Shown piece by piece: positions 5,001 through 63,047 of a DNA stretch of 64,000 nt. Both the position numbers and the translations under genes were made by a program. Source of the stretch: Candidatus Parcubacteria bacterium (GTDB lineage Bacteria > Patescibacteriota > Patescibacteriia > Patescibacteriales > UBA12075); the NCBI GenBank assembly GCA_023132155.1, contig JAGLYP010000002.1, positions 6,598 to 70,597 of the forward strand, written 5' to 3'. Each line of letters opens with the position of its first letter. Position 1 is the stretch's first letter. The notes beneath the pieces were generated by a model. The model was not told the origin of the DNA, did no database searches, and saw only the letters and a list, made by a program, of their open reading frames with translations.

Positions 5001-5830
5001 CAGTGTCAGCAGAAATTTTAGGAAGCAATAAAAAGCCGAAGATCGCGGTTATTCGCGAAGAAGGAAGCAATGGCGACAGGGAGATGGTGAGTGCGTTTTA
5101 TTCTGCCGGTTTTGAAGTGTGGGATGCGACCATGTCGGACGTCTTAGCAGGTATTGCCTTAGATGATTATAGAGGAATAGTATTTGTGGGAGGTTTTTCT
5201 TACGCGGATGTTTTAGGTTCGGCAAAAGGCTGGGCTAGCACAATTAAATATAATAAAAAAGCAAAGGAAATGTTTGAAAAATTTTATAATAGAACGGATA
5301 CTTTTTCATTAGGTGTTTGCAATGGCTGTCAGTTGATGGGGCTTTTGGGTATTGTGCCATGGAGCGGAATTGAAAGCGAAAAACAGCCCAGGTTTATTCA
5401 TAATAATTCAGGCCGGTTTGAGTCGCGCTGGACGACTGTAAAGATATTAGAAAGTTCCGCTATAATGTTTAAGGATATGGCAGGTTCAGTACTTGGCGCG
5501 TGGGTAGCGCATGGCGAAGGGAAATTGAATTTCCCGGATGTTAATATTTTAAAAGATGTTAAGGATAAGAATTTGGCAACAATTGCTTATGTTGATGACA
5601 GTGGAGCGCGGACTGAAAAATACCCGTTTAATCCAAATGGATCAATAGAGGGAATTACCGGGCTTTGCTCGGAGGATGGAAGGCATTTGGCGATGATGCC
5701 GCATCCTGAAAGATCATTTTTAAAGTGGCAATGGCCGTGGATGCCAAGCGAGCTTAATAAAGAATGGGAAGTTTCTCCTTGGTTGAAAATGTTTCAGAAT
5801 GCCAGAGAGTGGTGTGAGGATAATAAATAA
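2012..5830 (+). CDS. purL: phosphoribosylformylglycinamidine synthase, single-chain large type (synthetase plus C-terminal glutamine amidotransferase)
   Basis: 1272 aa. Has the FGAM synthase motifs (ETHNFPT, GAETGGGGRIRD, duplicated AIR-synthase-like domains). C-terminal GATase has the nucleophile GVCNGCQ and HPER. Confidence 0.95.
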   Translation: MYHFFYKEKKDLEYCFNVNTSEQLTEKEDEILRGILADGFVLKNIQKKSCFKNDEVIEIGPRLNVATAFSTNAIGICHACGLEKVVRIEKSRRYRILDEVNRDEFIKKNHDKMTECVYAKTLENFETGIEPEKVFEVPLIEEGIGAIKKINQDMGLGMDDWDEKFYYNLFVNIIKKNPSNVECFQLGQANSEHSRHWFFKGKMVIDEIEMNETLLEIIFSNLEKNPENSLVAFKDNSSAIKGYDISTLIPNSPGKMSLYKKNDSTYHFIFTAETHNFPTGVAPFPGAETGGGGRIRDVEAIGKGGLVVAGTTGYCVGNLNIPNYDLPWEDKSFKYPSNLAASLKIEIDASNGASDYGNKFGEPVIQGFTRSFGMKLPNNERQEYLKPIMFTGGVGQMDGRHLEKDKPKKGMLIIQIGGPAYRIGMGGGSASSMIQGENASELDFNAVQRGDAEMEQKMNRVVRACVELGSKNPIISIHDQGAGGPCNVVTEIVEPVGGKVDIRKIKVGDNTLSVLEIWGAEYQERNALLILPEEINEFKAICERERTNCEILGEITENGRIELIDSLDNSTVVDLELEKILGKMPQKVFNDKKLKKKFEAIDYSDKLTVEDVLINVLKLLSVGSKRFLTNKVDRSVTGLIARQQCCGPLQLPVSDMAVIAQTHFNKTGAAISIGEQPIKMIIDSKAGARMSVGEALTNMVWARISNIKDIKCSGNWMWAAKLEGEASRMYDAAVATRDLMIDLGIAIDGGKDSLSMAAKVGGEIVKSPGELAISAYASMPDIAKVITPDIKKAGMSELWFIDLGDNKNRLGGSAFAQTLNQIGNESPDVVDSKNLKNSFNAIQEMIDNDIILSGHDKSDGGLVTTMLEMAFSGNCGFDIDCKNENTDAISFYFNEELGLVIEVSDDKIEELNNILKKYNIDNIACKLGRTIKDEIIKIKYNNTEILNRDMKELRQIWEETSYQLEKLQMNLRNADEEKKNIFDLKNPAYKLSFTPKAVSAEILGSNKKPKIAVIREEGSNGDREMVSAFYSAGFEVWDATMSDVLAGIALDDYRGIVFVGGFSYADVLGSAKGWASTIKYNKKAKEMFEKFYNRTDTFSLGVCNGCQLMGLLGIVPWSGIESEKQPRFIHNNSGRFESRWTTVKILESSAIMFKDMAGSVLGAWVAHGEGKLNFPDVNILKDVKDKNLATIAYVDDSGARTEKYPFNPNGSIEGITGLCSEDGRHLAMMPHPERSFLKWQWPWMPSELNKEWEVSPWLKMFQNAREWCEDNK

Positions 5831-10490: not shown

Positions 10491-10699
10491 GTCATCCTGG
10501 AATTTTTATCGTAGCGACAGCGGAGATAAAAATATCCGGGATCCAGGAGCGCGAGAATTAACTGATAATTAAAATTAACTAATGCCACGTATTAATTTAT
10601 TTATGTAATTGGTCATAATATAATAATTATACATATTACCCCTGGATCCCGGATATTTTTTCTTGTCGCTATCGCTCCAAGAAAAAATTCCAGGATGAC
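10491..10699. mobile_element. miniature (ORF-less) copy of the hairpin-armed GIY-YIG-associated element (copy A)
   Basis: Left arm GTCATCCTGGAATTTTTATC...GATAAAAATATCCGGGATCCAGG (10491-10547). Right arm CCTGGATCCCGGATATTTTTTCTTG...CAAGAAAAAATTCCAGGATGAC (10641-10699). The arms are inverted copies of each other and each folds on itself. AT-rich core of about 90 bp with no ORF. Confidence 0.7.
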
Positions 10700-10782
10700 A
10701 AAATATAGAGGTTTATTAATTTTTGTCAACGGATTTGGTTGACAATATTCAAGACATTAAAAAATTAAAAGCTAGTATAACA

Positions 10783-29924: not shown

Positions 29925-32693
29925 ATGCAAAATTTGAAGAAAAATAATATTGGCAATTTTAATCAAGACGCGCGGCCGTCTCGTTTTATGCTGGATTTGA
30001 AGGCAAAGCAAAGAAAGCAGAAAGCAGAAGAAACGGAATTAAAAAAAAGCAAGAAGCCAATTAATAATTTTTTTGAGCAGATAAACAAATTTAAAGAGTT
30101 TAGCCAAAATAAATTTTGTAAAAGCAATAAAGAATTAAATCAAAAGAAAACGGCAGAGTCTGAAGAAAAAATAAAAAAGCCAAAAACATTTGCTTATAAA
30201 AAACGCAAAAATTTAATTTTAAATTATTTTAAAAATTTTCACCTTAGACAAGGAAGACATCTTAAGCGCATGGCGTTTTTTCCTTTTTTTAAGGTATTTT
30301 TTATTGCGATTAAAACAAGTTTCAAGGTTTGCCACGCGGCCGGTTTTTCAGTTTTGTTTATAGCGCGTTTTATTTTTTTCTTTTTTAAGAAAATATTTTC
30401 CGCTGTTGCCGGTTTTAAGAAAAACAAAAAACAAAAAATAAAAACCGTTGATATTAATATTGAGAGAATTTTCAAGCATAGCAAAAAGCCTAAGAGTAGA
30501 ATATCTAATATTTTTAAGCCACGTAAAGCCGGCTATTTTATTCCAAAAAGGTTTGGACATCTAAATTTTAAGCCCTTTTTAGCCTTTTTGTTAATTTTAA
30601 TTGTTTTAACCCTGCCTTTTAAAGCTTTAATTTTTTACAGTGGAATAAGCAATTTAAAAGACAGGGTTTTTGGAATTTCAGCTAACGCGGTTGAGGATAT
30701 TAAATCCGCTTCAAGCTACGCTATTGAGCGAGAGTTTGAAAAAGCGGATAGCGGTTTTACCGAAGCAAGCCGTAATTTTTTAGAAGCTAAAAGCGAACTT
30801 GATGAAATAAGTGTTTTTTTAGATACAATGGGCGCGATTATTCCAAATAAAGAATTAAAACTGGCAAAAGAAGCGGATTTATTTTTAGAGGCAGGCAGTT
30901 TAAGCGCGGAAATTTGCGCTGAATTAAGCCGCGCTTTAAACGTATTTAATGAGCCTGAGGCAAGCGTGAAAAAGATTTTTGACAATTTTCAGGATTCCGG
31001 CAGAAATTTAAGCTTAAAAACATCTCAGTTTGCCGCGGTTATTAAAGAAATTAACGCGAAAGCGCTCCCCGAAGAATATCAGGCGCTTTTTAATGATATT
31101 AAGAAAAAGATTGTTTTGATTGATGAGAATTTAAATGAATTTTTAAGCATAATTGACTTGGCGCGAATATTTTTAGGCTTTGAGCGGGATCAAAGATATC
31201 TTTTTGTTTTTCAAAATAATGCCGAGCTAAGAGCAAGCGGCGGTTTTATCGGCAGTTTTGCCTTGGTTGATTTCAGTAATGGCGAAATAAAAAATATGGA
31301 AGTGCCGGGTGGCGGCAGTTATGACACTAAAGGCGGTTTGTATGAAAAGATTATCGCGCCCGAACCTTTACATTTGGTTGATCCGCAGTGGCATTTTTGG
31401 GATGCAAATTGGTGGCCGGACTGGCCGACGAGTGCCGCAAAATTAATGTGGTTTTATGAAAAAAGCGGCGGTCCCACAGTTGACGGCATTATTAGCTTTA
31501 CTCCTACGGTTTTGGAAAAATTGTTGGAAACTATCGGAGAAATTGATATGACGGAAGAGTATGGTATTGTGTTTAACTCTGAAAATGTTTGGCAGATTTT
31601 GCAAGTTATATCAGAACAAAAAGAAAAAGATCATCCTGATTATGCCAAGTACGCGAAATTATATAAAGATATAATCGGCGAAGAAAAATTCATGTTGCTT
31701 GAACAAAAAAATGATACAGTTTCTAGCAGCGCTAATATAGTCAGAGGCACGGAAGAAATAATTAGAAAGCGGCATGAGCCGAAAAAAATAATCGGAGATT
31801 TAATGGAGAAGATTGTTTTTAAATCAAAAAATGGATTAAACAAGGATATGTTTTTCGGTTTAGTTGATGTATTTTTAAGCAATTTAAATGAAAAGCATTT
31901 TATGCTTTATTTTGTTGATGGCGCGCTGCAAAAAAAGATTATTGAATATGGCTGGTCCGGAGAAATGAAAAAAAGCAATTGGGATTATTTAATGGTAATA
32001 AATACCAATATTGCCGGCGCTAAAACCGATAAAGTTATCAAGGAAGAAATTTCGCACAAAAGCAGTGTTGCCGAAGACGGTACCATAACCAATACAGTAG
32101 CAATTACACGCAGGCATACCGGTTACGCCGGTGATCCGATACTTGGGGTAAGAAATGTTGATTGGTTGAGAGTTTACGCGCCTTTAGGCAGTAAATTGCT
32201 TTCCGCGAGCGGATTTAGCGCGCCTGACAAGGAGTATTTTAATAATCCGGAAGCATATTGGCAACAGGACGCTTATATCTCGGCGACAGAGGGCAGGGGA
32301 GTGGTTGATAAACAGTCGGGCACGAAAATTTATCAGGAAAAATATAAAACAGTTTTCGCGAATTGGTGCATGGTTAATCCTGGTGAAACGATTGTTATCC
32401 GTTTGAAATATGTTCTGCCTTTTAAAATGCGAATCGCGCAAAAAGAGAATAATTTGCAAAATAAGCTTAATCAATTTTTAAATCCTGAACAAAAAGATTT
32501 ATGTCCGCACGCGCTTTTAGCGCAAAAACAGCCGGGATCAATCGGCAGTAAATTTAAAAGCGAGCTTGTTTTGCCAAGTAATTTTACAATCAAATGGCAA
32601 TACGGGCAAGATGCGAGTAAACAAAATTCATGGCTTATTTCCGATGTTTTAAATACGGATAAATATTGGGCGGCTTTGTTGGAAATAAATTAA
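29925..32693 (+). CDS. DUF4012-like membrane-anchored protein
   Basis: Basic low-complexity N-terminus and TM helices. The motif FVFQNNAELRASGGFIGSFALVD is recalled as the DUF4012 signature. Confidence 0.55.
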   Translation: MQNLKKNNIGNFNQDARPSRFMLDLKAKQRKQKAEETELKKSKKPINNFFEQINKFKEFSQNKFCKSNKELNQKKTAESEEKIKKPKTFAYKKRKNLILNYFKNFHLRQGRHLKRMAFFPFFKVFFIAIKTSFKVCHAAGFSVLFIARFIFFFFKKIFSAVAGFKKNKKQKIKTVDINIERIFKHSKKPKSRISNIFKPRKAGYFIPKRFGHLNFKPFLAFLLILIVLTLPFKALIFYSGISNLKDRVFGISANAVEDIKSASSYAIEREFEKADSGFTEASRNFLEAKSELDEISVFLDTMGAIIPNKELKLAKEADLFLEAGSLSAEICAELSRALNVFNEPEASVKKIFDNFQDSGRNLSLKTSQFAAVIKEINAKALPEEYQALFNDIKKKIVLIDENLNEFLSIIDLARIFLGFERDQRYLFVFQNNAELRASGGFIGSFALVDFSNGEIKNMEVPGGGSYDTKGGLYEKIIAPEPLHLVDPQWHFWDANWWPDWPTSAAKLMWFYEKSGGPTVDGIISFTPTVLEKLLETIGEIDMTEEYGIVFNSENVWQILQVISEQKEKDHPDYAKYAKLYKDIIGEEKFMLLEQKNDTVSSSANIVRGTEEIIRKRHEPKKIIGDLMEKIVFKSKNGLNKDMFFGLVDVFLSNLNEKHFMLYFVDGALQKKIIEYGWSGEMKKSNWDYLMVINTNIAGAKTDKVIKEEISHKSSVAEDGTITNTVAITRRHTGYAGDPILGVRNVDWLRVYAPLGSKLLSASGFSAPDKEYFNNPEAYWQQDAYISATEGRGVVDKQSGTKIYQEKYKTVFANWCMVNPGETIVIRLKYVLPFKMRIAQKENNLQNKLNQFLNPEQKDLCPHALLAQKQPGSIGSKFKSELVLPSNFTIKWQYGQDASKQNSWLISDVLNTDKYWAALLEIN

Positions 32694-32701
32694 CAATTAA
32701 T

Positions 32702-32734
32702 AATTAAGAATTAATTATTAATTCTTAATTTTTA
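32702..32734 (+). terminator. AT-only hairpin plus T-run
   Basis: AATTAAGAATTAAT t ATTAATTCTTAATT then TTTT. Confidence 0.4.
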
Positions 32735-32745
32735 ATCAAAGTAAC

Positions 32746-48275: not shown

Positions 48276-48720
48276 ATTGTTGGTTTTTCAAAATCCCTCC
48301 CTTTATTTTTTTTGCGCGTGTTGTTAAATAGAGAACATTTGGAATAAGGCAAGGAAATTGGAAATTATTAATTATTAATTATTTAAGCTTCGACCTTTAG
48401 TCTTTTAAGCGTAATAATTAATACCGTTAAAGTTCTTGCCGGAGTTACATGCAATAAATTTAAAACTTAGCATAAAGATATTAAGGATGTATTAATTTAC
48501 AAAATAATTGCCTTATTTTAATATTTGTGATATTTTTAGAATAAAGAAAAATTATTTTAGGAAAAGACCATTCCGTTTGTATTAAAATTAGAAAATGATT
48601 TTAATCAGCCATATGACGGAATTTACGGATGAAATTAAAGTTGATGATTATTTGGATTTGGGCAAGTTGTAGGAGTTTTTTTAATAAATTATTAATATTA
48701 TTTTGATTTAATATTAATAT

Positions 48721-52200: not shown

Positions 52201-53349
52201 GTGGTTTTAAAGAAAAAAGTAAAAAAAATTTTAGGTCAAAGAGTCGGTTATCATGAACCGGATAACGCGTTAATAATTGTTGTTGGAATTATCTTGCTTT
52301 TTGGCCTTATAAGCCTGTCTAGCGCTTCCGCTATAATGGCTTATTCTAATTTCGCGGATGTTTATTATTATTTTAAGCATCAATTAGTCGGCTTGGGTTT
52401 TGGGATTGTTGCTTTTATTTTTTTCTCGCGCGTTGATTATCACATTTGGCGCAAATACGCGTTTTGGTTTTTAGTCGGCTCGGTCGTTCTGCTGTTATTG
52501 GTATTTATTCCCGGTCTTAGCAGACACTATGGAAAGGCCAGGAGCTGGATTAATGTTTTTGGCTTTTCATTGCAGCCGGCGGAATTTGTAAAATTGTCAT
52601 TTCTTTTGTATTTGGCGGCTTGGCTGGAAACAAGAAAAAAGAATTTAGGCGATATTTCGCAAGGCATCGGCTCTTTTGTGGCTGTGCTTGGGCTGATTGC
52701 TTTTTTAATGATTTTACAGCCGGATATCGGAACTCTTTCAATTATAGCGATAACATCTTTAATTGTATATTTTGTCGGCGGCGGGAAAGTTAAGCATATT
52801 ATTATAATAGGAGTTTTCGGCTTGCTGGCTTTTGCTTTAATGGTTCAAATTAAGGACTATCAGCATGATCGTTTTAAATGTTTGCTTGATCCGAGTTATG
52901 ATAAAAAAGGCGTTTGTTATCAAGTCAATCAATCTTTGATTGCGGTTGGTTCCGGCGGAATAACAGGACGCGGTTTAGGCGCGAGCCGCCAAAAATATAT
53001 GTACCTGCCGGAGGTTAGCGGCGATTCCATATTCGCGATTATCGCCGAAGAAACCGGCATGATTTTCAGTATTTTGTTAATAGCCGCTTTTTCTTTTTTA
53101 TTTTACCGCGGTTTTTTAATTGCGAAAAAAGCACCGGATGATTTTGGCAGAATTTTAGCTATTGGCATTGTGAGTTGGATTGTAATTCAAGCAATAATAA
53201 ATATTGGCGGGATTATTAATGTTTTGCCAATGACCGGCGTGCCTTTGCCGTTGATTTCGTATGGCGGATCCGCTATATTGGCGACATTGGCCGCGATTGG
53301 GATATTGGTGAATATTAGCAAGCAGACTCGGCGTTCAATTAAAAATTAA
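52201..53349 (+). CDS. ftsW: SEDS family lipid II flippase/PG polymerase (FtsW/RodA)
   Basis: GTG start. LQPAEF.K, PDIGT, and the PLPLISYGGS motif. dcw synteny. Confidence 0.85.
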   Translation: MVLKKKVKKILGQRVGYHEPDNALIIVVGIILLFGLISLSSASAIMAYSNFADVYYYFKHQLVGLGFGIVAFIFFSRVDYHIWRKYAFWFLVGSVVLLLLVFIPGLSRHYGKARSWINVFGFSLQPAEFVKLSFLLYLAAWLETRKKNLGDISQGIGSFVAVLGLIAFLMILQPDIGTLSIIAITSLIVYFVGGGKVKHIIIIGVFGLLAFALMVQIKDYQHDRFKCLLDPSYDKKGVCYQVNQSLIAVGSGGITGRGLGASRQKYMYLPEVSGDSIFAIIAEETGMIFSILLIAAFSFLFYRGFLIAKKAPDDFGRILAIGIVSWIVIQAIINIGGIINVLPMTGVPLPLISYGGSAILATLAAIGILVNISKQTRRSIKN

Positions 53350-53386
53350 AAATTACACCCGTCAAGCGAGTACAAGCGAATTAAGA

Positions 53387-55037: not shown

Positions 55038-56339
55038 ATGAAAAATTGCAGCTTAATTATAAAAGGAAAATATGTTTTAACAATGGATGACAAAATGTCT
55101 GTTTTTAATGATGGGGTTGTGGCGGTTGATGATGATGAAATAATAGCAATTGGCGAAAAGGAAATTTTAGAAAAGTACAAGAGTGAAAAAATTATTGATG
55201 CGGGAAACAGTATTATTATGCCGGGGCTGATTAATACGCATACGCACGCGGCCATGGCGTATTTTCGCGGGTTAGCTGATGATTTGCCTTTGCCGGTATG
55301 GTTGGAAAAGCATATTTGGCCGGCTGAGGCTAAATATGTTAATAAGAATTTTGTTAAAAAGGCTTCAGCGCTTGCTTGTTTGGAAATGATAAAATCGGGA
55401 GTTACTTGTTTTAATGATATGTATTTTTTTGAACAAGAAACCGCTTCGGTTGCAAGCCGGATCGGAATGCGCGCTTTAATCGGCGAAGTAATATTGGATT
55501 TTCATACGCCAAGCTGTAAAACTCCAAAAGAAGCGCTGAAAAAAACAGAAGAAATGATATTAAAATATAAAGACAGCGAATTAATTTCAGTGGCAGTCGC
55601 GCCTCATTCTATCTATACTTGTTCAGAGGAAAATTTAAGCAAATCGAAAGAATTAGCAGACAAATATTCAATTAATTTGCATATACATATAAGCGAAACT
55701 GAAAAAGAAAATAAAGATTGTTTGAGAGATAATGAAAAAAGTCCGGTTAAATATTTGGATGAGCTGGGAATTTTGAATAATAAAACAATTGCCGCGCACA
55801 GTATTTGGCTTGATGATGAAGATATTGAGATATATAAAAATAGGCAGGTAAAAATAAGCCATTGCCCGATTAGCAATATGAAATTAGCCTCCGGTATTAT
55901 GAATTTTAAAAAAATGCGTGAATCGGGTTTGGTAATCAGTTTGGGAACGGACGGCGCGGCAAGCAATAATACTTTGGATTTATTTTCTGAAATGCGCGCT
56001 TGCGCTTTATTGCATAAAGTAAACAATTTGAATCCGGAAATAGCCTCTGCAACTGAAATCGTAAAAGCCGCGACAATTAACGGCGCCAAGATCTTGGGAA
56101 TGGATGATAAAATCGGTTCGCTTGAAATTGGCAAAAAAGCTGATATAATAACTGTTAATTTGAATAAGCCTCATTTGACCCCGATTTATAATCCATGTTC
56201 GCATTTGGTTTACGCGGTTAATTTAGCGGATGTGGAGAATGTGATTGTTAACGGCAAGCTGATTATGCAAAACAGGGAAGTTTTGGGTTTGGATGAGGAT
56301 AGAATATTAGAAGAGGCATGTAAGTTCAAAAGGAACTAA
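55038..56339 (+). CDS. mtaD: amidohydrolase, 5-methylthioadenosine/S-adenosylhomocysteine deaminase-like
   Basis: MPGLINTHTHAAMAYFRGLADDLPLPVWLEKHIWPAE, HISET, and GTDGAASNN. The last two codons and the stop lie in palindrome P1b. Confidence 0.75.
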   Translation: MKNCSLIIKGKYVLTMDDKMSVFNDGVVAVDDDEIIAIGEKEILEKYKSEKIIDAGNSIIMPGLINTHTHAAMAYFRGLADDLPLPVWLEKHIWPAEAKYVNKNFVKKASALACLEMIKSGVTCFNDMYFFEQETASVASRIGMRALIGEVILDFHTPSCKTPKEALKKTEEMILKYKDSELISVAVAPHSIYTCSEENLSKSKELADKYSINLHIHISETEKENKDCLRDNEKSPVKYLDELGILNNKTIAAHSIWLDDEDIEIYKNRQVKISHCPISNMKLASGIMNFKKMRESGLVISLGTDGAASNNTLDLFSEMRACALLHKVNNLNPEIASATEIVKAATINGAKILGMDDKIGSLEIGKKADIITVNLNKPHLTPIYNPCSHLVYAVNLADVENVIVNGKLIMQNREVLGLDEDRILEEACKFKRN

Positions 56340-56414
56340 GTACCTACGATTTTTTTTGTTAACCTGGATTTTAAAATCCAGGTTAACAAAAAAAATCGTA
56401 GGTACTTAGTTCCT
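56331..56414. repeat. perfect 84-bp palindrome, family P1 (copy b)
   Basis: AGGAACTAAGTACCTACGATTTTTTTTGTTAACCTGGATTTT | AAAATCCAGGTTAACAAAAAAAATCGTAGGTACTTAGTTCCT. Fills the whole mtaD-murC spacer, ending 2 nt before the murC ATG. Confidence 0.95.
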
Positions 56415-56416
56415 TC

Positions 56417-57874
56417 ATGCAATATATTATGGATTTAGAAAATATTAAAAAAATATACATGATAGGCATTAAGGGCGTGGGCATGACTATGCTCGCTCAG
56501 TTTTTGGCTTCAAAAGGATATAATGTAAGTGGCTCCGACGTGGATGAGGTTTTTATGACTGATGAAGTTTTGAAGACGGCCGGAATAAAATTTTATAATG
56601 GCTTTAATAAGAATAATGTTCCATTAGACACTGATTTAGTAATATATTCAACCGCCCATGAAAAAAACAATAAAGAGCTTGAATTTGTAAAAAGCCGCAA
56701 TAAAAAAATAATGACTTACGCCGAAGCGCTTGGCGTAGTTTTTAAAGATTATTATGGCATAGCGGTTTGCGGATCGCACGGCAAGACAACCACGACTGCT
56801 TGGCTAGCTTATGTTTTAAAAAAGGCTAATCGCGAGCCGAACGCAATGATTGGCGCCAGAGTGGAGCAGCTTGACGGAGCAAGTATTATCGGCAGTTCCC
56901 AATATTTAATAATTGAAGCTGATGAATATCAGAATAAATTAAAATATTTGGAATCGCGCGCGGTTTTGTTGAATAATATTGATTATGACCATCCGGATTT
57001 TTTTCCTACTGAGGATGATTATAATCAAGTTTTTATTGAGTTTATTAAAAAGATTCCGAAAAAGGGCTGGGTGGTTGCCAATTTTGATGATCCAATAATT
57101 AGAAAAATCGCTCTGGTAAACACGCGAGCGAAAGTTATCAGCTATGCGATAAACGAGTCGGCTGATTATGTGGCTTATGATATTAAGCAATTAAATGACA
57201 AACAATATTTTAAAGTAAAAATCGGACCAAGCGTTTTTGAAGAAAATGATTTATTAGCGGATACGGAACTTGGGAATTTTTCAATTCAATTGATTGGCGA
57301 GCATAATATCTATAATGCTCTGGCGGTAATCGCGGCGTCAATTGAATTGGGGGTTGACTTGGTGGATATCAGGACTTATTTAGATGAATTCAAGGGAACG
57401 TCCAGGCGCATGGAAATGATGGGAAAATTTAACGGCGCTGTTATTCTTGACGACTATGCGCATCATCCGACAGAAATTAAAACCACTTTAAAAGGCGCGC
57501 GGCAAAAGTATGGCAATAAAAAAATCCGCGTTGTTTTTCATCCGCATACTTTTACTCGCACAAAAGCCTTGTTTGATAATTTTGCTAAAAGTTTTGACGA
57601 TGCCGATGAAGTGGTTGTTTTGGATATTTACGGGAGCGCTCGCGAGGAGCATGGCGGAGTGCATAGTAGGGATTTGGTTGAAAAAATAAAATCACAAATC
57701 CCCACTTCACTAAAGCTACGCGGGGCAAGCACAAATCAAAAATTAAAAATTCATCATATTCCAACATTAGACAAATGTGAAAAATATTTGCGCGGTACAA
57801 TTCAGCGTGATGAAGTTATTATTTTAATGGGCGCGGGGGATGTGTTTCGGATCGGGGAAAAATTGGTAAAATAA
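56417..57874 (+). CDS. murC: UDP-N-acetylmuramate--L-alanine ligase
   Basis: IGIKGVGMTMLA, GSHGKTTTT, DDYAHHP and GAGDV. Confidence 0.9.
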   Translation: MQYIMDLENIKKIYMIGIKGVGMTMLAQFLASKGYNVSGSDVDEVFMTDEVLKTAGIKFYNGFNKNNVPLDTDLVIYSTAHEKNNKELEFVKSRNKKIMTYAEALGVVFKDYYGIAVCGSHGKTTTTAWLAYVLKKANREPNAMIGARVEQLDGASIIGSSQYLIIEADEYQNKLKYLESRAVLLNNIDYDHPDFFPTEDDYNQVFIEFIKKIPKKGWVVANFDDPIIRKIALVNTRAKVISYAINESADYVAYDIKQLNDKQYFKVKIGPSVFEENDLLADTELGNFSIQLIGEHNIYNALAVIAASIELGVDLVDIRTYLDEFKGTSRRMEMMGKFNGAVILDDYAHHPTEIKTTLKGARQKYGNKKIRVVFHPHTFTRTKALFDNFAKSFDDADEVVVLDIYGSAREEHGGVHSRDLVEKIKSQIPTSLKLRGASTNQKLKIHHIPTLDKCEKYLRGTIQRDEVIILMGAGDVFRIGEKLVK

Positions 57875-57885
57875 AATGGAAATAC

Positions 57886-59214
57886 ATGACATACCATATA
57901 ATCACAATCGGTTGCCAGATGAATAAGAGCGATTCGGAGCGGATTGCCGCTTGTTTGGAGGATATGGGTTATCGCGAGTCTGAAAATAGGAATCAGGCTG
58001 ATTTGGTAGTACTTACGACTTGCGGTGTTCGGCAATCAGCTGAAGATCGGATTTATGGTTTGGTTCCGAAAATTAAAAAAGAAAATAAGGACGTAAAAAT
58101 ATTGCTAACCGGATGTTTATCTGAACGGAAAGATGTTATTAAAAGATTAAAAGAAAAAATTGATATTTGGCTGCCGGTAAATCAAATTTCAAATTTAAAA
58201 CAAGTATTAATTGATTCAGGTTTTAAGAATTCAGAAATTGAAGCTTGCGATTATTTGAAAATAAAACCGAAATATACTTCAAAATTTAGCGCGTTTGTGC
58301 CGATTGGCAATGGCTGTGATAATTTTTGCGCTTATTGCGTTGTGCCTTACGCGCGCGGACGCGAAGTTTATCGGGATGTGGAAGAGATTTTGAATGAAGT
58401 GGAAAGTTTGATTAAAAAAGGATATAAAGAAATAATTTTGATTGCGCAGAATGTAAATAGCTATTATTCTGAAATTACAAATTACAAATTACAAATTACA
58501 AATAAATCACAAATATTAAATTCAAAATATTTAAGATTTTTTGATTTACTAAAACTGGTAAACAGTATCCCCGGGGATTTTTGGGTGCGGTTTGCGAGCA
58601 GTCATCCGAAAGATATGAGTGATGATTTGATTTTGGCGATTTTAGAATGTGAAAAAGTTTGTAAGCACATCCATTTGCCGGCGCAGTCAGGGGATAACGG
58701 AGTTTTAAAGTCTATGAATAGGAAATATAAAATTGAGCATTATTTGGATTTGATTAGAAAAATTAAAGATAACACAAAAAGCAAATTGCCGGTAGCGCTT
58801 ACCACTGATATTATTGTCGGTTTTCCCGGTGAGACAGAAGAACAGTTTGGCAATACTATAAAATTATTTGAAAAAGTAAAATATGACATGGCCTACATCG
58901 CGCGGTATAGTCCGCGTTACGGAACAGCTGCGGAAAAGATAAAGGATAATGTTGGGGCGGATGAGAAAAAAAGAAGGGAAGGAGAGTTAATGAAAGTATT
59001 AAGAAAAACCGCGCTGAAAAATAATCAAAAATATTCAGGCAGAACGGTTAAAGTTTTGGCTGAAGGCAAAAATAAGAAAGGAATTTTGTTTGGAAAAACC
59101 GAAACAAATAAAACCGTTAAATTTTGGGGGGATAAAAATTTTGTTGGAAAATTTGTGAGTGTTAATATAACAGCAGTGGAAGATTTTAGTTTGAGCGGTG
59201 ATTTACAAAAATAA
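57886..59214 (+). CDS. miaB: tRNA-2-methylthio-N6-dimethylallyladenosine synthase (MTTase family)
   Basis: IGCQMNKSDSE (UPF0004 Cys). Radical SAM motif GCDNFCAYCVVP. C-terminal TRAM domain. Confidence 0.85.
   Translation: MTYHIITIGCQMNKSDSERIAACLEDMGYRESENRNQADLVVLTTCGVRQSAEDRIYGLVPKIKKENKDVKILLTGCLSERKDVIKRLKEKIDIWLPVNQISNLKQVLIDSGFKNSEIEACDYLKIKPKYTSKFSAFVPIGNGCDNFCAYCVVPYARGREVYRDVEEILNEVESLIKKGYKEIILIAQNVNSYYSEITNYKLQITNKSQILNSKYLRFFDLLKLVNSIPGDFWVRFASSHPKDMSDDLILAILECEKVCKHIHLPAQSGDNGVLKSMNRKYKIEHYLDLIRKIKDNTKSKLPVALTTDIIVGFPGETEEQFGNTIKLFEKVKYDMAYIARYSPRYGTAAEKIKDNVGADEKKRREGELMKVLRKTALKNNQKYSGRTVKVLAEGKNKKGILFGKTETNKTVKFWGDKNFVGKFVSVNITAVEDFSLSGDLQK
58472..58499 (+). repeat. (AAATTAC)x4 heptanucleotide tandem repeat inside miaB
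   Basis: Read directly. Encodes part of EITNYKLQITNK within an apparent insertion relative to MiaB as I recall it. Confidence 0.9.
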
Positions 59215-59215
59215 A

Positions 59216-59245
59216 ACCCCCGCCAATAAAAAACTGAACGGGGGG
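59216..59245. terminator. convergent-gene hairpin
   Basis: CCCCCG ... CGGGGGG between miaB (+) and the 59251 gene (-). Confidence 0.5.
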
Positions 59246-59250
59246 CTCTG

Positions 59251-60030
59251 TTAAGCGTATAATATTGTATAAGGACAGTTGCCGGTAGTGGCAGTCAAGA
59301 GAACATCATGTTCTTGCAATTTACAAAATATCAAATTTCTTTCCATTTCCTGTCGGCGGTGAGAAAAAAGAATGTTTCTATCATCACCGTTATTGGTGAA
59401 ATTCCCAAAAGTATTATGATGGGAACAAATGTTAAGTAATTTGATATTGTCCGCGGCAATTCCGGATTCCATAAGTTTATAGCCAATTAATCCGGCTAGG
59501 TTAAATTGATATTTTTTCGGTTTTCCATTTTTCTTGAAAAATTTTTGATAGCCATGGTTTTGGCTGAAAGCGCCAAATACATCAAGGCCTACTTCGTAAC
59601 AATCTTGGCATATTCCAGAATAGATAAGTGCTTTTAGATTTTCAATTTTTTTATCTAGTGCCAATTTTACATAAGGCATAGTCCATTCTATTATCATATC
59701 AGCCAATGTAATGTGGCTGCAATGGATTATGCCAATATGATTTTCCGGCATTTTTTTGTCTTGATATAGCAGCGCGTCGCGTTCAAAACTTAAAAATTCA
59801 TCATTAGCCTCGTTAATAAGCGACATGGCAGAATCATGGCGCGGAATTATGTGCAGGCAAGAGCTGGCCCAAGCTTCTTTTGCTAAATTTTTAATTTTTT
59901 TTTGGTTTTTTTCAGTGTTGCCATTTTTTGAGCTGAAGTCGCCAAATTGAGTAGTGGTTAAACCAAAAAAAATGTTTTCATCCGAGAAAGTTATAGCTTT
60001 ACCGTCTTGTGAAAGAACACAATTTTTCAT
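59251..60030 (-). CDS. YfiH/PgeF-like (DUF152, laccase-domain) protein, divergent
   Basis: Family-like spacing of DALLY..., IYSGICQDCYEVG, NLAGL...L.ESG, C(S)HH and LFSHRR. Several canonical residues are not obvious. Confidence 0.4.
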   Translation of the reverse strand: MKNCVLSQDGKAITFSDENIFFGLTTTQFGDFSSKNGNTEKNQKKIKNLAKEAWASSCLHIIPRHDSAMSLINEANDEFLSFERDALLYQDKKMPENHIGIIHCSHITLADMIIEWTMPYVKLALDKKIENLKALIYSGICQDCYEVGLDVFGAFSQNHGYQKFFKKNGKPKKYQFNLAGLIGYKLMESGIAADNIKLLNICSHHNTFGNFTNNGDDRNILFSHRRQEMERNLIFCKLQEHDVLLTATTGNCPYTILYA

Positions 60031-60121
60031 TTATTCCCCCTCCTGTTTTTTATTGTTGTTTATGAAAAATGTTTAATTTTATTTTTTTATGTTAACATAA
60101 AATTATTAATAATTCAAGTAT

Positions 60122-61111
60122 ATGAAAAAAAAGAAAAAAGTGGTGGTGATTGTCGGAACTACTGCCAGCGGTAAGACCGCGTTAGCCGTGGATTTAGCCT
60201 ATAAATTCGGCGGAGAAGTGATTTCAGCCGATTCCCGGCAGGTTTATAAATATATGGATATTGGTACAGGTAAAGATTTGCAAGAATATATTTTAGAATT
60301 TCCAATTTCCAATTTCCAATTTCCAATTTTAAAATTTAAAAATAAAATTAAGATTAAAATTCCACATCATTTGTTAGATGTTGTTTCGCCAAATACAAGT
60401 TTTGATTTGGTGAAATGGTTAAAAAAGGCAAAAATTTCTATAAATGATATTTTAGATAGGGGGCGATTACCGATTGTTGCCGGCGGTACAGGCCTTTACG
60501 CGCAGGCTCTGGTGGATAATTATAATTTAAGTAAATATGGAGAAGACAAAAAATTACGGGAAAAATTGGAGAAGAAAGAAAAGACAGAATTATTTAAAAT
60601 ATTATTAAAATTAGATGAAAAATTTGCAAAAAAGCTTAATAATAGCGAAAAAAACAATAAACGAAGATTAATTCGATATATAGAAATATGCAGGCAGGGA
60701 GAGAAAATTAAAAATAAAAACTTAAATAAAAACAATGAATATGAATTTTTGCTTATTGGCATTACTTGGCCGCGGGAGATTCTTAGAAAGAAAATATACA
60801 AAAGATTAATAGAGCGTTTAGAAAAAGAAGATATGATCGGGGAGGTTATTCGGCTGCATAAAGATAAAAAAGTAAGCTGGAAACGGCTTGAATCTTTTGG
60901 CTTGGAGTATAGATTTATTTCCCAGTATTTGCGAAAAAAACTAAGTTACGATGAAATGGTGGAGAAATTAAATATTGCTATCGGCCAGTTTGCCAAAAAG
61001 CAGATTACTTGGCTGCGGCGATGGGAAAAGCAAGGCGCTAAAATTTATTGGGTTAAAAAAAGACAAGAAGCTGAAAAATTATGTAAAAATTTTTTGCGCA
61101 TTGACAATTAA
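60122..61111 (+). CDS. miaA: tRNA dimethylallyltransferase
   Basis: VVIVGTTASGKTALAVDLA, ISADSRQVYKYMDIGTGK, PHHLLD and GGTGLY. Confidence 0.9.
   Translation: MKKKKKVVVIVGTTASGKTALAVDLAYKFGGEVISADSRQVYKYMDIGTGKDLQEYILEFPISNFQFPILKFKNKIKIKIPHHLLDVVSPNTSFDLVKWLKKAKISINDILDRGRLPIVAGGTGLYAQALVDNYNLSKYGEDKKLREKLEKKEKTELFKILLKLDEKFAKKLNNSEKNNKRRLIRYIEICRQGEKIKNKNLNKNNEYEFLLIGITWPREILRKKIYKRLIERLEKEDMIGEVIRLHKDKKVSWKRLESFGLEYRFISQYLRKKLSYDEMVEKLNIAIGQFAKKQITWLRRWEKQGAKIYWVKKRQEAEKLCKNFLRIDN
60297..60324 (+). repeat. (AATTTCC)x4 heptanucleotide tandem repeat inside miaA
   Basis: Read directly. Encodes EFPISNFQFPI within an insert of about 20 aa between the GTGK and PHHL motifs. Confidence 0.9.
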
Positions 61112-61155
61112 ATAATAATATGCTAATTTATTCTATTGTAAGATAAGCATATTTT

Positions 61156-62013
61156 ATGAATATTCAAGAGTATATAAATGTCTTAAAACAAAAAAAGCAG
61201 ACTGTTTTTTCGGCTGTGGCTTTGTTTTTGGCCTTTGCCGTAATTTTGACTGTAATCCAGCCCTTTAAATACGGTTCAGAAGCGAAAATATTAGTAGTGC
61301 AAAAAACCCAATACGGCATAGACCCTTATCAGGTTAATAAGGCCAATGAATATGTGAGCGATGTTTTAGCTGATGTGATAAGCACTAATTCTTTTTTTAA
61401 TGAAGTAATTAATTCCGGTTTTGATGTTAATCGCAATTATTTTCCAGCCAGATTGGAGGATCAAAATAAAAAATGGAAAAAAACAGTAAAGGCAAATTCC
61501 AGCAGTCGCGGTATTATAACTTTGTCTGTTTTTCATGAAGACAAATATCAAGCCGATCAGATAATCCGGGCGATAAATGCCGCGCTTAAAGACAAGCATA
61601 CGCTTTATCATGGTTCAGGCGATCAGGTGGAAATAAGAATAATTGGCCAGCCTTTTACTTCGGAATCGCCGGTTAAACCGAATATTGTTTTAAATTTATT
61701 ATTTGGCGTTTTGTTCGGACTGTTGTTTGCCTTGACTTACGCTTATTTGTTTCCAGAAGATAAATATAATTTGCGTTTGTGGCCGAGAAAAAAAATCAGA
61801 CAAAGACATGACGAAGCGCAAGAAATGGATCTTGGCAGAGGCGTAAATAAGAGCGAGAATTATGACGTGGAAGAAGCGATTAGAAAATTGCGCCAAAGAG
61901 AGAAAATGCAAGCTTTTGTTCCGCAGCAGAATGAAAATGAAAACTATAAAAATAACGATGATTTGGATTATGACGATATATCAGGGCAGGGGGATATGAA
62001 GAATATTCTGTAG
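61156..62013 (+). CDS. Wzz-like polysaccharide chain-length determinant domain protein
   Basis: N-terminal TM helix after IQEYINVLKQKK, a periplasmic domain, a second TM helix (LLFGVLFGLLFALTYAYLF), and an acidic tail. Confidence 0.5.
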   Translation: MNIQEYINVLKQKKQTVFSAVALFLAFAVILTVIQPFKYGSEAKILVVQKTQYGIDPYQVNKANEYVSDVLADVISTNSFFNEVINSGFDVNRNYFPARLEDQNKKWKKTVKANSSSRGIITLSVFHEDKYQADQIIRAINAALKDKHTLYHGSGDQVEIRIIGQPFTSESPVKPNIVLNLLFGVLFGLLFALTYAYLFPEDKYNLRLWPRKKIRQRHDEAQEMDLGRGVNKSENYDVEEAIRKLRQREKMQAFVPQQNENENYKNNDDLDYDDISGQGDMKNIL

Positions 62014-62850: not shown

Positions 62851-63000
62851 GTCATTCCATGGGCGCGGAGCGCAACCTGGAATCCAGGAGGGCGAGAAAT
62901 AAATAAACAATAACAAATAAGTATAGTACGTGCATCTTACCCCTGGATCCCGGATATTTTTTCTTGTCGCTTAAGTTCCAAGAAAAAATTCCAGGATGAC
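62851..63000. mobile_element. miniature (ORF-less) copy of the hairpin-armed element (copy C)
   Basis: Left arm GTCATTCCATGGGCGCGGAGCGCAACCTGGAATCCAGG (62851-62888). The right arm (62942-63000) is 53/59 identical to copy A's right arm, and all differences fall in the hairpin loop. Confidence 0.7.
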
Positions 63001-63047
63001 AAAAGAGAGGGATGGCGTTGTGCGAATTGTAGTCTAATTATTTTTTT

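Follow-up and report, generated by a model that had tools for sequence, protein, structure and literature searches.

Heptanucleotide tandem arrays carried in frame by miaB and miaA of a Candidatus Parcubacteria bacterium

Heptanucleotide repeats are the most over-represented class of long simple sequence repeats (SSRs) in many bacteria, where they are ascribed to polymerase slippage; repeats with a unit length not divisible by 3 are expected to be rare in genes (Mrazek et al. 2007, summarised in PMC4692102 and PMC4679880). Known examples include the cyanobacterial STRR, GGGNATC in Xanthomonas and Nostoc, and TAACTGA in Beggiatoaceae (Mrazek, Guo and Shah 2007, summarised in PMC4692102 and PMC4679880). 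Such SSRs share with the arrays described here their head-to-tail 7-nt units, the over-representation of period 7, the relatedness of neighbouring units and a presumed origin in slippage. The SSRs described there are overwhelmingly intergenic, whereas ours occupy the genes of conserved enzymes in frame, have a size quantised at about 4.6 copies and, within this clade, concentrate in two genes that serve a single pathway. A literature search returned nothing on SSRs in Patescibacteria.

Three other systems invite comparison. In the SSR contingency loci of Haemophilus, Neisseria and Campylobacter, as in the miaB gene studied here, an intragenic tract has a unit that is not a multiple of 3, and slippage by one unit abolishes the product. 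miaB differs in that no ON/OFF polymorphism was seen in assemblies, in that its tracts are short, several per gene and not N-terminal, and in that the host is a housekeeping tRNA-modification enzyme rather than a surface or restriction-modification gene. Copy-number change in a 6-bp repeat of Escherichia coli mutL gives reversible mutators. Like the miaB array, this is a short tandem repeat in a housekeeping fidelity gene, and its length change alters a global phenotype; its unit is, however, a multiple of 3 and its variation has been observed experimentally, whereas the miaB unit is 7 nt long and no variation was seen in assemblies. Rickettsia palindromic elements are selfish DNA carried in frame in protein genes and are palindromic, 100–150 bp long and conserved in sequence. 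They too add extra, apparently functionless peptides at permissive surface positions of many unrelated genes, but the insertions reported here are tandem heptamers of 30–33 nt whose units are arbitrary and which lack defined ends.

Conserved genes are expected to be purged of tandem repeats with a unit length not divisible by three, yet here such repeats are common, in frame, quantised and actively homogenised. The explanation that we favour, with a probability of roughly 0.6, is that the miaB array is a slippage-made heptanucleotide microsatellite that has become fixed and is translated in frame within a functional MiaB, in a loop that is dispensable and probably disordered.

The miaB and miaA arrays and the loops that hold them

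The window (the whole stretch of DNA analysed, 64,000 nucleotides) contains the following features.

57886–59214, + strand: miaB (predicted tRNA ms2i6A37 methylthiotransferase), an intact 442-aa ORF with Pfam UPF0004, Radical_SAM and TRAM domains
58182–58200, + strand: TCAAATT x2.7, a decayed heptamer array in the linker that follows UPF0004 (site 1); relatives have perfect arrays at the same site
58315–58338, + strand: radical-SAM motif CDNFCAYC, MiaB residues 144–151, with CxxxCxxC present
58465–58536, + strand: MiaB loop, residues 194–217, between QNVNSY and FFDLL; length hypervariable among relatives
58472–58503, + strand: perfect (AAATTAC)x4.57 array, 32 nt, translated ITNYKLQITN
58504–58531, + strand: degenerate second array, shifted in phase by 4 nt, AAATCAC AAATATT AAATTCA AAATATT
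60122–61111, + strand: miaA (predicted tRNA dimethylallyltransferase), an intact 329-aa ORF with Pfam IPPT (2.9e-53)
60275–60358, + strand: MiaA loop, residues 52–79, between GTGK and IPHHLLD; 6–47 residues long in 53 relatives
60297–60329, + strand: perfect (AATTTCC)x4.71 array in miaA, 33 nt, translated FPISNFQFPI

By domain architecture and fold the product of 57886–59214 (MCK4539594.1) is MiaB, and its predicted activity is methylthiolation of i6A37. The Bacteroides uniformis MiaB chains 7mjz and 7mjv matched it at 5e-80 (phmmer), and its AlphaFold (AF2) model, with an overall pLDDT of 80.7, gave TM scores of 0.85–0.86 against the solved MiaB structures 7mjv–7mjz, with 0.86 for 7mjv. The preliminary description had reported four perfect AAATTAC units in frame inside this gene. 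We found these units at 58472–58499 and observed that perfect 7-nt periodicity continues to 58503. The array lies at residue 196 of 442, and its in-frame translation is SEITNYKLQITNKSQ, ...QNVNSYYSEITNYKLQITNKSQILNSKYLRFFDLL.... Together with the degenerate second array, heptamer-derived sequence accounts for about 60 nt of the 72-nt loop region, and one relative, L006, has the same two-part architecture of a perfect array and a degenerate second one. The analogous array that had been noted in miaA is also present, and no other perfect tandem array of period 4–12 in the 64 kb is as long as either of the two. With 4.57 perfect head-to-tail copies of its 7-nt unit, the miaB array far exceeds what chance would give: a 21-nt version of the pattern with up to 3 mismatches matched four times in the window, against an expectation of 0.03 from 100 dinucleotide-preserving shuffles of the window. 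A search of 57000–61500 against Rfam returned no match to a known RNA element at E<=1.

At the MiaA site, relative L014 carries a unit and copy number identical to those of the window. Another relative, L022, has an in-frame (AGACGGC)x10.3 array in miaA (5449–5520; RRQTTDGRQQTADGRRQTADGRRQ), longer than any other coding array seen. Some relatives encode a fused MiaA + MiaB protein of about 756–773 aa (P0086 and P0102; L032, 3977–6295), and the MiaB loop of P0086 holds FPISNFQF, the peptide of the window's MiaA array.

The preliminary description had also judged the segment after QNVNSY to be longer than usual, and comparison with relatives bore this out. The distance from QNVNSY to F..LL ranges from 6 to 72 residues among 120 homologues; it is 24 in the window and 11 in the solved B. 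uniformis MiaB, where residues 222–236 of 7mjv correspond to the loop. A minimal loop of 6 residues is present in 31 of 79 related genome loci (about 40%) from Falkowbacteria and Parcubacteria species, the remainder having inserts. In about 20 loop inserts the strongest DNA periodicity was at lag 7 or 14, with units that differed among them; by lineage, the units at this loop include AAATTAC, AATTACG, AATCAAG, AAAGTCA, AGACGGC, AACACAC and AAATCCC. The AlphaFold model places the window's insert at low confidence, with a mean pLDDT of 48 over residues 201–210. Given the variation in length, the differing units, the 6-residue loops and the low pLDDT, comparison and model together mark the insert as dispensable and probably disordered.

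One possible alternative is that the basic, polar heptad peptide (ITNYKLQITNKSQ...) has been selected as an extra surface for tRNA binding or other interactions. Array peptides are mostly rich in K, N, Q, S and T, and in some relatives that are only 60% identical the QITNK peptide is conserved as well as the rest of the protein, an observation that counts against the explanation we favour. We nevertheless regard a functional peptide as very unlikely: the minimal loops carry no insert at all, the units and peptides are wholly different by lineage (RRQTADG, KVKSQKS and THNTQHT, for example), the insert has low pLDDT and, as described below, an identical peptide occurs in unrelated enzymes. Selection for a protein heptad or coiled coil was rejected because the hydrophobic pattern is not kept between units and the pLDDT is low.

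The same MiaB loop holds a different kind of insertion in three relatives. After QNVNSY, L005, L010 and L032 carry small GC-rich palindromic mini-inserts that are translated in frame, such as TCCGCCAGCTGGCGGA in L010 and the pair CHSREGGNPES...WIPAYAGMT in L005. A hairpin, GTAGGGGTCGAT...ATCGACCC, is common to L153 and L167, where it adjoins (AAATTAC)n arrays in two unrelated genes. The mini-inserts and this hairpin suggest a second class of in-frame insertions.

Period, size and turnover

We scanned the window and 80 related loci (709 kb) with TRF for arrays with 3 or more copies and 85% or more matches. Period 7 was found 60 times, period 8 seven times and period 9 twice. For perfect arrays of at least 3 copies the excess was similar, with 46 of period 7 and at most 3 of any other period from 4 to 11. 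The window alone has seven period-7 segments, against no more than two for each other period, and loci recovered from metagenomes have a period-7 excess likewise. In the same genomes, then, period 7 exceeds other periods, as expected of a heptanucleotide SSR class.

Smaller heptamer arrays are scattered through the window. AAAAACA x3.6 lies at 30420–30444 inside a 930-aa ORF whose 3' end carries AATTAAC/ATTAATT arrays (32688–32736); AATTATT x3 is non-coding (48363–48383), and AATTAAA x2.7 lies at 53337–53355. MurC residues 423–445 (57683–57751) form a low-complexity insert, KIKSQIPTSLKLRGASTNQKLKI, with residual 7-nt periodicity (AAATTAA x2.7, TRF 57733–57751), and the matching position in the MurC of L005 carries a heptamer array of 5.4 copies.

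The arrays that lie in genes have a preferred size. Among ORFs of at least 150 aa, 23 of 36 arrays measure 30–33 nt; the length distribution of non-coding arrays falls off smoothly from 21 nt, with arrays as long as 113–126 nt. The quantisation of coding arrays indicates purifying selection on the reading frame, and 30–33 nt fits a seed of about 1.3–1.7 units plus 3 units, the smallest in-frame gain. The 10.3-copy miaA array of L022 is consistent with a seed plus 9 units.

Perfect arrays also show concerted evolution. At the miaB linker site, L017 has (GAAATCC)x4 and L024 has (GAAACCC)x4: the same base is changed in every unit at equal length, and the adjacent imperfect array is identical between the two. 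The perfect arrays were thus homogenised after speciation, which argues that slippage is real and ongoing and upholds the slippage premise of the preliminary description. This change, together with the differing units at one site, points by comparison of sequences to the gain and loss of units that characterises heptanucleotide SSRs. Array length is conserved all the same: L111 and L142, 97% identical, both have a 33-nt array, and L003 and L004, 83% identical, have inserts of equal length, so that length is unchanged at 3% and 17% flank divergence.

Consistent with these observations, replication slippage may generate the arrays, 7 nt being by far the preferred slippage period in these genomes. 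Within genes, only net gains in multiples of 3 nt would survive, so that adding 3 units (21 nt, 7 residues) to a seed of about 1.6 units would give the typical array of 30–33 nt and about 4.6 copies. Continuing unit turnover would keep perfect arrays homogeneous, imperfect ones would turn static and decay, and the encoded peptide would have no required function. A difficulty for this explanation is that classical slippage does not add 3 units to a 1.6-copy seed in a single step.

The AAATTAC unit extends well beyond miaB. A metagenome scan for (AAATTAC)x4 returned at least 120 loci, on contigs of 27–63% G+C. Among the matches listed, the modal array length is 31–34 nt, and long open frames that span the listed arrays read KLQITNYKLQ. 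Pfam assigned hosts among the listed loci to RsmH, MnmA, TsaD, MurG, MurB, MetRS, a pseudouridine synthase, GT1 and GT4 glycosyltransferases, Mur ligase and PfkB kinase, and reading of the ORFs added LeuRS, IleRS and PheT among those listed. MetRS, TsaD, MurG and like genes are essential, and arrays in MetRS and TsaD would seem to need the single-step gain of 3 units. An assembly artefact was rejected as a source of the arrays because they recur in frame across many independent assemblies from different projects.

The presence of one unit at many unrelated loci across such a range of G+C raised a further alternative, a small mobile or selfish element that inserts in frame as the Rickettsia palindromic elements do. 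The reuse of units at several sites of one genome, the GC-rich hairpin mini-inserts in the same loops and the L153/L167 hairpin adjoining arrays also speak for such an element. Alignment of the flanks of the 120 listed (AAATTAC)n copies, however, found them unrelated, with no common flanks or conserved ends, and thus no defined mobile element; by the same evidence the arrays lack the conserved sequence and defined ends at many sites that mark the Rickettsia elements, and their units are arbitrary. The other heptamer arrays of those loci, which were not seeded by the search, comprise 56 different units among 65 arrays; local seeds such as K-L codons plausibly explain some arrays, and the window holds no other copy. 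We therefore give a mobile element little credence. A composite mobile element was rejected in the same way: "(AAATTAC)n AAAT + second array" occurs in several unrelated genes, but the 120 listed copies share no flanks.

Concentration in two tRNA-modification genes

Among the 80 related loci, perfect arrays of at least 28 nt number 17 in miaB (105 kb) and 7 in miaA (66 kb), against none in other open frames (384 kb) and 2 in non-coding DNA (90 kb). The difference between miaB/miaA and other ORFs, 24 to 0, is significant (Fisher p=5e-13). Other open frames in these loci are mostly non-syntenic with the window and so provide a varied sample of genes. The only arrays of at least 28 nt in the window are those in miaB and miaA, and about a quarter of related species have at least one array in these genes. 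Arrays occupy four sites in miaB (the linker that follows UPF0004, the loop described above, a position near residue 300 and the TRAM domain) and one in miaA, and a single gene carries up to four. The clade-wide concentration in miaB and miaA is robust and is not described in the literature that we searched. Loop tolerance alone leaves this specificity unaccounted for, which weighs against the explanation we favour.

A regional mutation hotspot of 2 kb or more was considered as a cause and rejected. Flanks within 4 kb have no ORF arrays of at least 28 nt, and clustering of arrays is confined to less than 300 nt, which makes a broad hotspot unlikely. The non-coding TRF arrays of L006 and L034 lie immediately 3' of the miaB match.

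Reuse of units within a genome is a second observation at odds with the favoured explanation. In L022 the unusual unit AGACGRC recurs at two miaB sites as well as in the 10.3-copy miaA array, and L019 uses its unit twice. A stop-codon filter does not account for this reuse, since 1,608 stop-free cyclic unit classes remain, with an effective number of about 870. With so many units available, slippage that is purely local and independent does not fully explain the pattern, and the reuse hints at copying between nearby arrays.

Two explanations tied to the substrate of the enzymes were also rejected. Mimicry of the 7-nt anticodon loop recognised by MiaA and MiaB does not fit units of the AGACGGC type, which have no equivalents of U33 or A36–A38, and many units have no AAA. 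The array might act as a UNN-codon sensor of tRNA modification, and the fraction of UNN codons is 0.375 in the window's loop against 0.21 in the gene; several mia arrays, however, contain no UNN codon, so this could not be general.

A more specific proposal is that miaA and miaB tolerate frameshifts in their own sequence. Loss of (ms2)i6A37 increases ribosomal frameshifting, and a heptamer array can be read through in any of the three frames with an identical peptide from each, so that an allele with one unit too many or too few might be partly self-rescued by the frameshifting that follows loss of the modification. Such intermediates would persist until further slips restored the frame, and arrays would accumulate preferentially in miaA and miaB as a result. 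This proposal would account for the strong clade specificity, for several arrays per gene and adjacent composite arrays, and for the quantised final sizes, in keeping with the known effect of the modification on frameshifting. We consider it doubtful: no out-of-frame intermediate was seen among 80 miaB genes, 73 miaA genes and about 150 arrays, the units of some mia arrays (AGACGGC, for example) contain no UNN codon, the window's loop has only a modest excess of UNN codons, and arrays are also found in MetRS and TsaD, essential genes, of other lineages. We place a bolder version in the same unlikely range. In it, self-renewing heptamer arrays would have colonised specifically the two (ms2)i6A37 genes through a feedback of frame maintenance and frameshift tolerance, possibly acting as a low-rate, leaky and reversible switch.

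Reading frame and the question of switching

The preliminary description had argued that gain or loss of one unit would shift the frame of miaB, and modelling of alleles from -3 to +3 units agreed. The -2, -1, +1 and +2 alleles all stop right after the array, giving predicted products of 201–215 aa. On these modelled alleles, miaB resembles a contingency locus in having an intragenic tract in which a change of one unit would switch expression. With the microsatellite explanation, a slip of 1 or 2 units would likewise truncate MiaB at about residue 201–215, and selection would remove such alleles.

We looked for the variants that switching should leave. None of 80 miaB and 73 miaA relatives had matches in more than one frame, as an out-of-frame allele would. 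No gene was split, with two long open frames of one gene separated, at any of about 150 arrays; the sole split-like case, in L111 and L142, is an intergenic array upstream of tsaB. Ten predicted products of alleles with 1, 2, 3, 5, 6 or 7 copies gave no match among about 15 billion proteins, a result that carries little weight. An ENA metagenome contig and GCA_030631305.1 contain this DNA at 100% identity, each of the two arrays having four units, and all five assemblies are identical, although they may share one sample and so say little on heterogeneity. ON and OFF alleles were thus absent from the strains and related genomes compared.

The position of the tract is also unlike that of known switches. 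Phase-variable SSRs are typically biased towards the N terminus (PMC3315296), whereas the miaB array lies at residue 196 of 442, and relatives have sites as far along as the TRAM domain.

These results bear on the suggestion in the preliminary description that miaB has the design of a contingency locus. In its adaptive form, slippage in miaB or miaA would toggle ms2i6A37 in a subpopulation, giving heritable and reversible changes in the decoding of UNN codons and possibly in mutation rate. Several observations fit: the unit length is not divisible by 3, a slip of 1 or 2 units would bring an immediate stop, perfect arrays lie in both genes of one pathway and turn over, and across the clade arrays occur in miaB and miaA and in no other ORF. 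Moreover, miaA and miaB are dispensable in model bacteria, and the level of miaA tunes the proteome. We nonetheless regard adaptive switching as unlikely. No out-of-frame allele or split gene was found, variant products are missing from public data and the five assemblies are identical; copies number only 4.6, array length is conserved across 3–17% divergence, and up to four arrays per gene, from a domain linker to the TRAM domain, take the place of one N-terminal tract. An identical array also lies in frame in genes such as MetRS, TsaD and MurG. With no polymorphism in relatives or public data, the adaptive on/off sense of the suggestion is not supported, and a literature search returned nothing on phase-variable miaA or miaB. 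We conclude that the miaB array is a tolerated mutational liability, not a demonstrated switch.

In this one clade the arrays are almost confined to the genes for a tRNA modification that is known to safeguard the reading frame. Should this specificity have a biological cause other than loop tolerance, it would connect tRNA modification with the tolerance of frameshift mutations and would offer a first candidate for switchable tRNA modification. If only tolerance is involved, the arrays of these ultra-small bacteria would be a clean natural record of protein loops shaped by slippage and by selection on the frame, and a practical warning that heptad-like low-complexity inserts in such proteins may be DNA-level artefacts of evolution and not functional motifs.

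Two further repeats were noted elsewhere in the window. A perfect palindrome of 86 bp (56330–56415), with 43-nt arms that are 100% complementary and no spacer, ends one base before the murC start codon (56417) and occurs in each of the two assemblies compared; a real cruciform or regulatory site could account for it, as could an artefact of fold-back assembly. A 72-bp intergenic element occurs in two copies that are 93% identical (10632–10703 and 62933–63004) and holds the inverted repeat CCTGGAT...ATTTTTTCTTG / CAAGAAAAAATTCCAGG; its first copy lies about 20 nt upstream of an ORF that starts at 10723.
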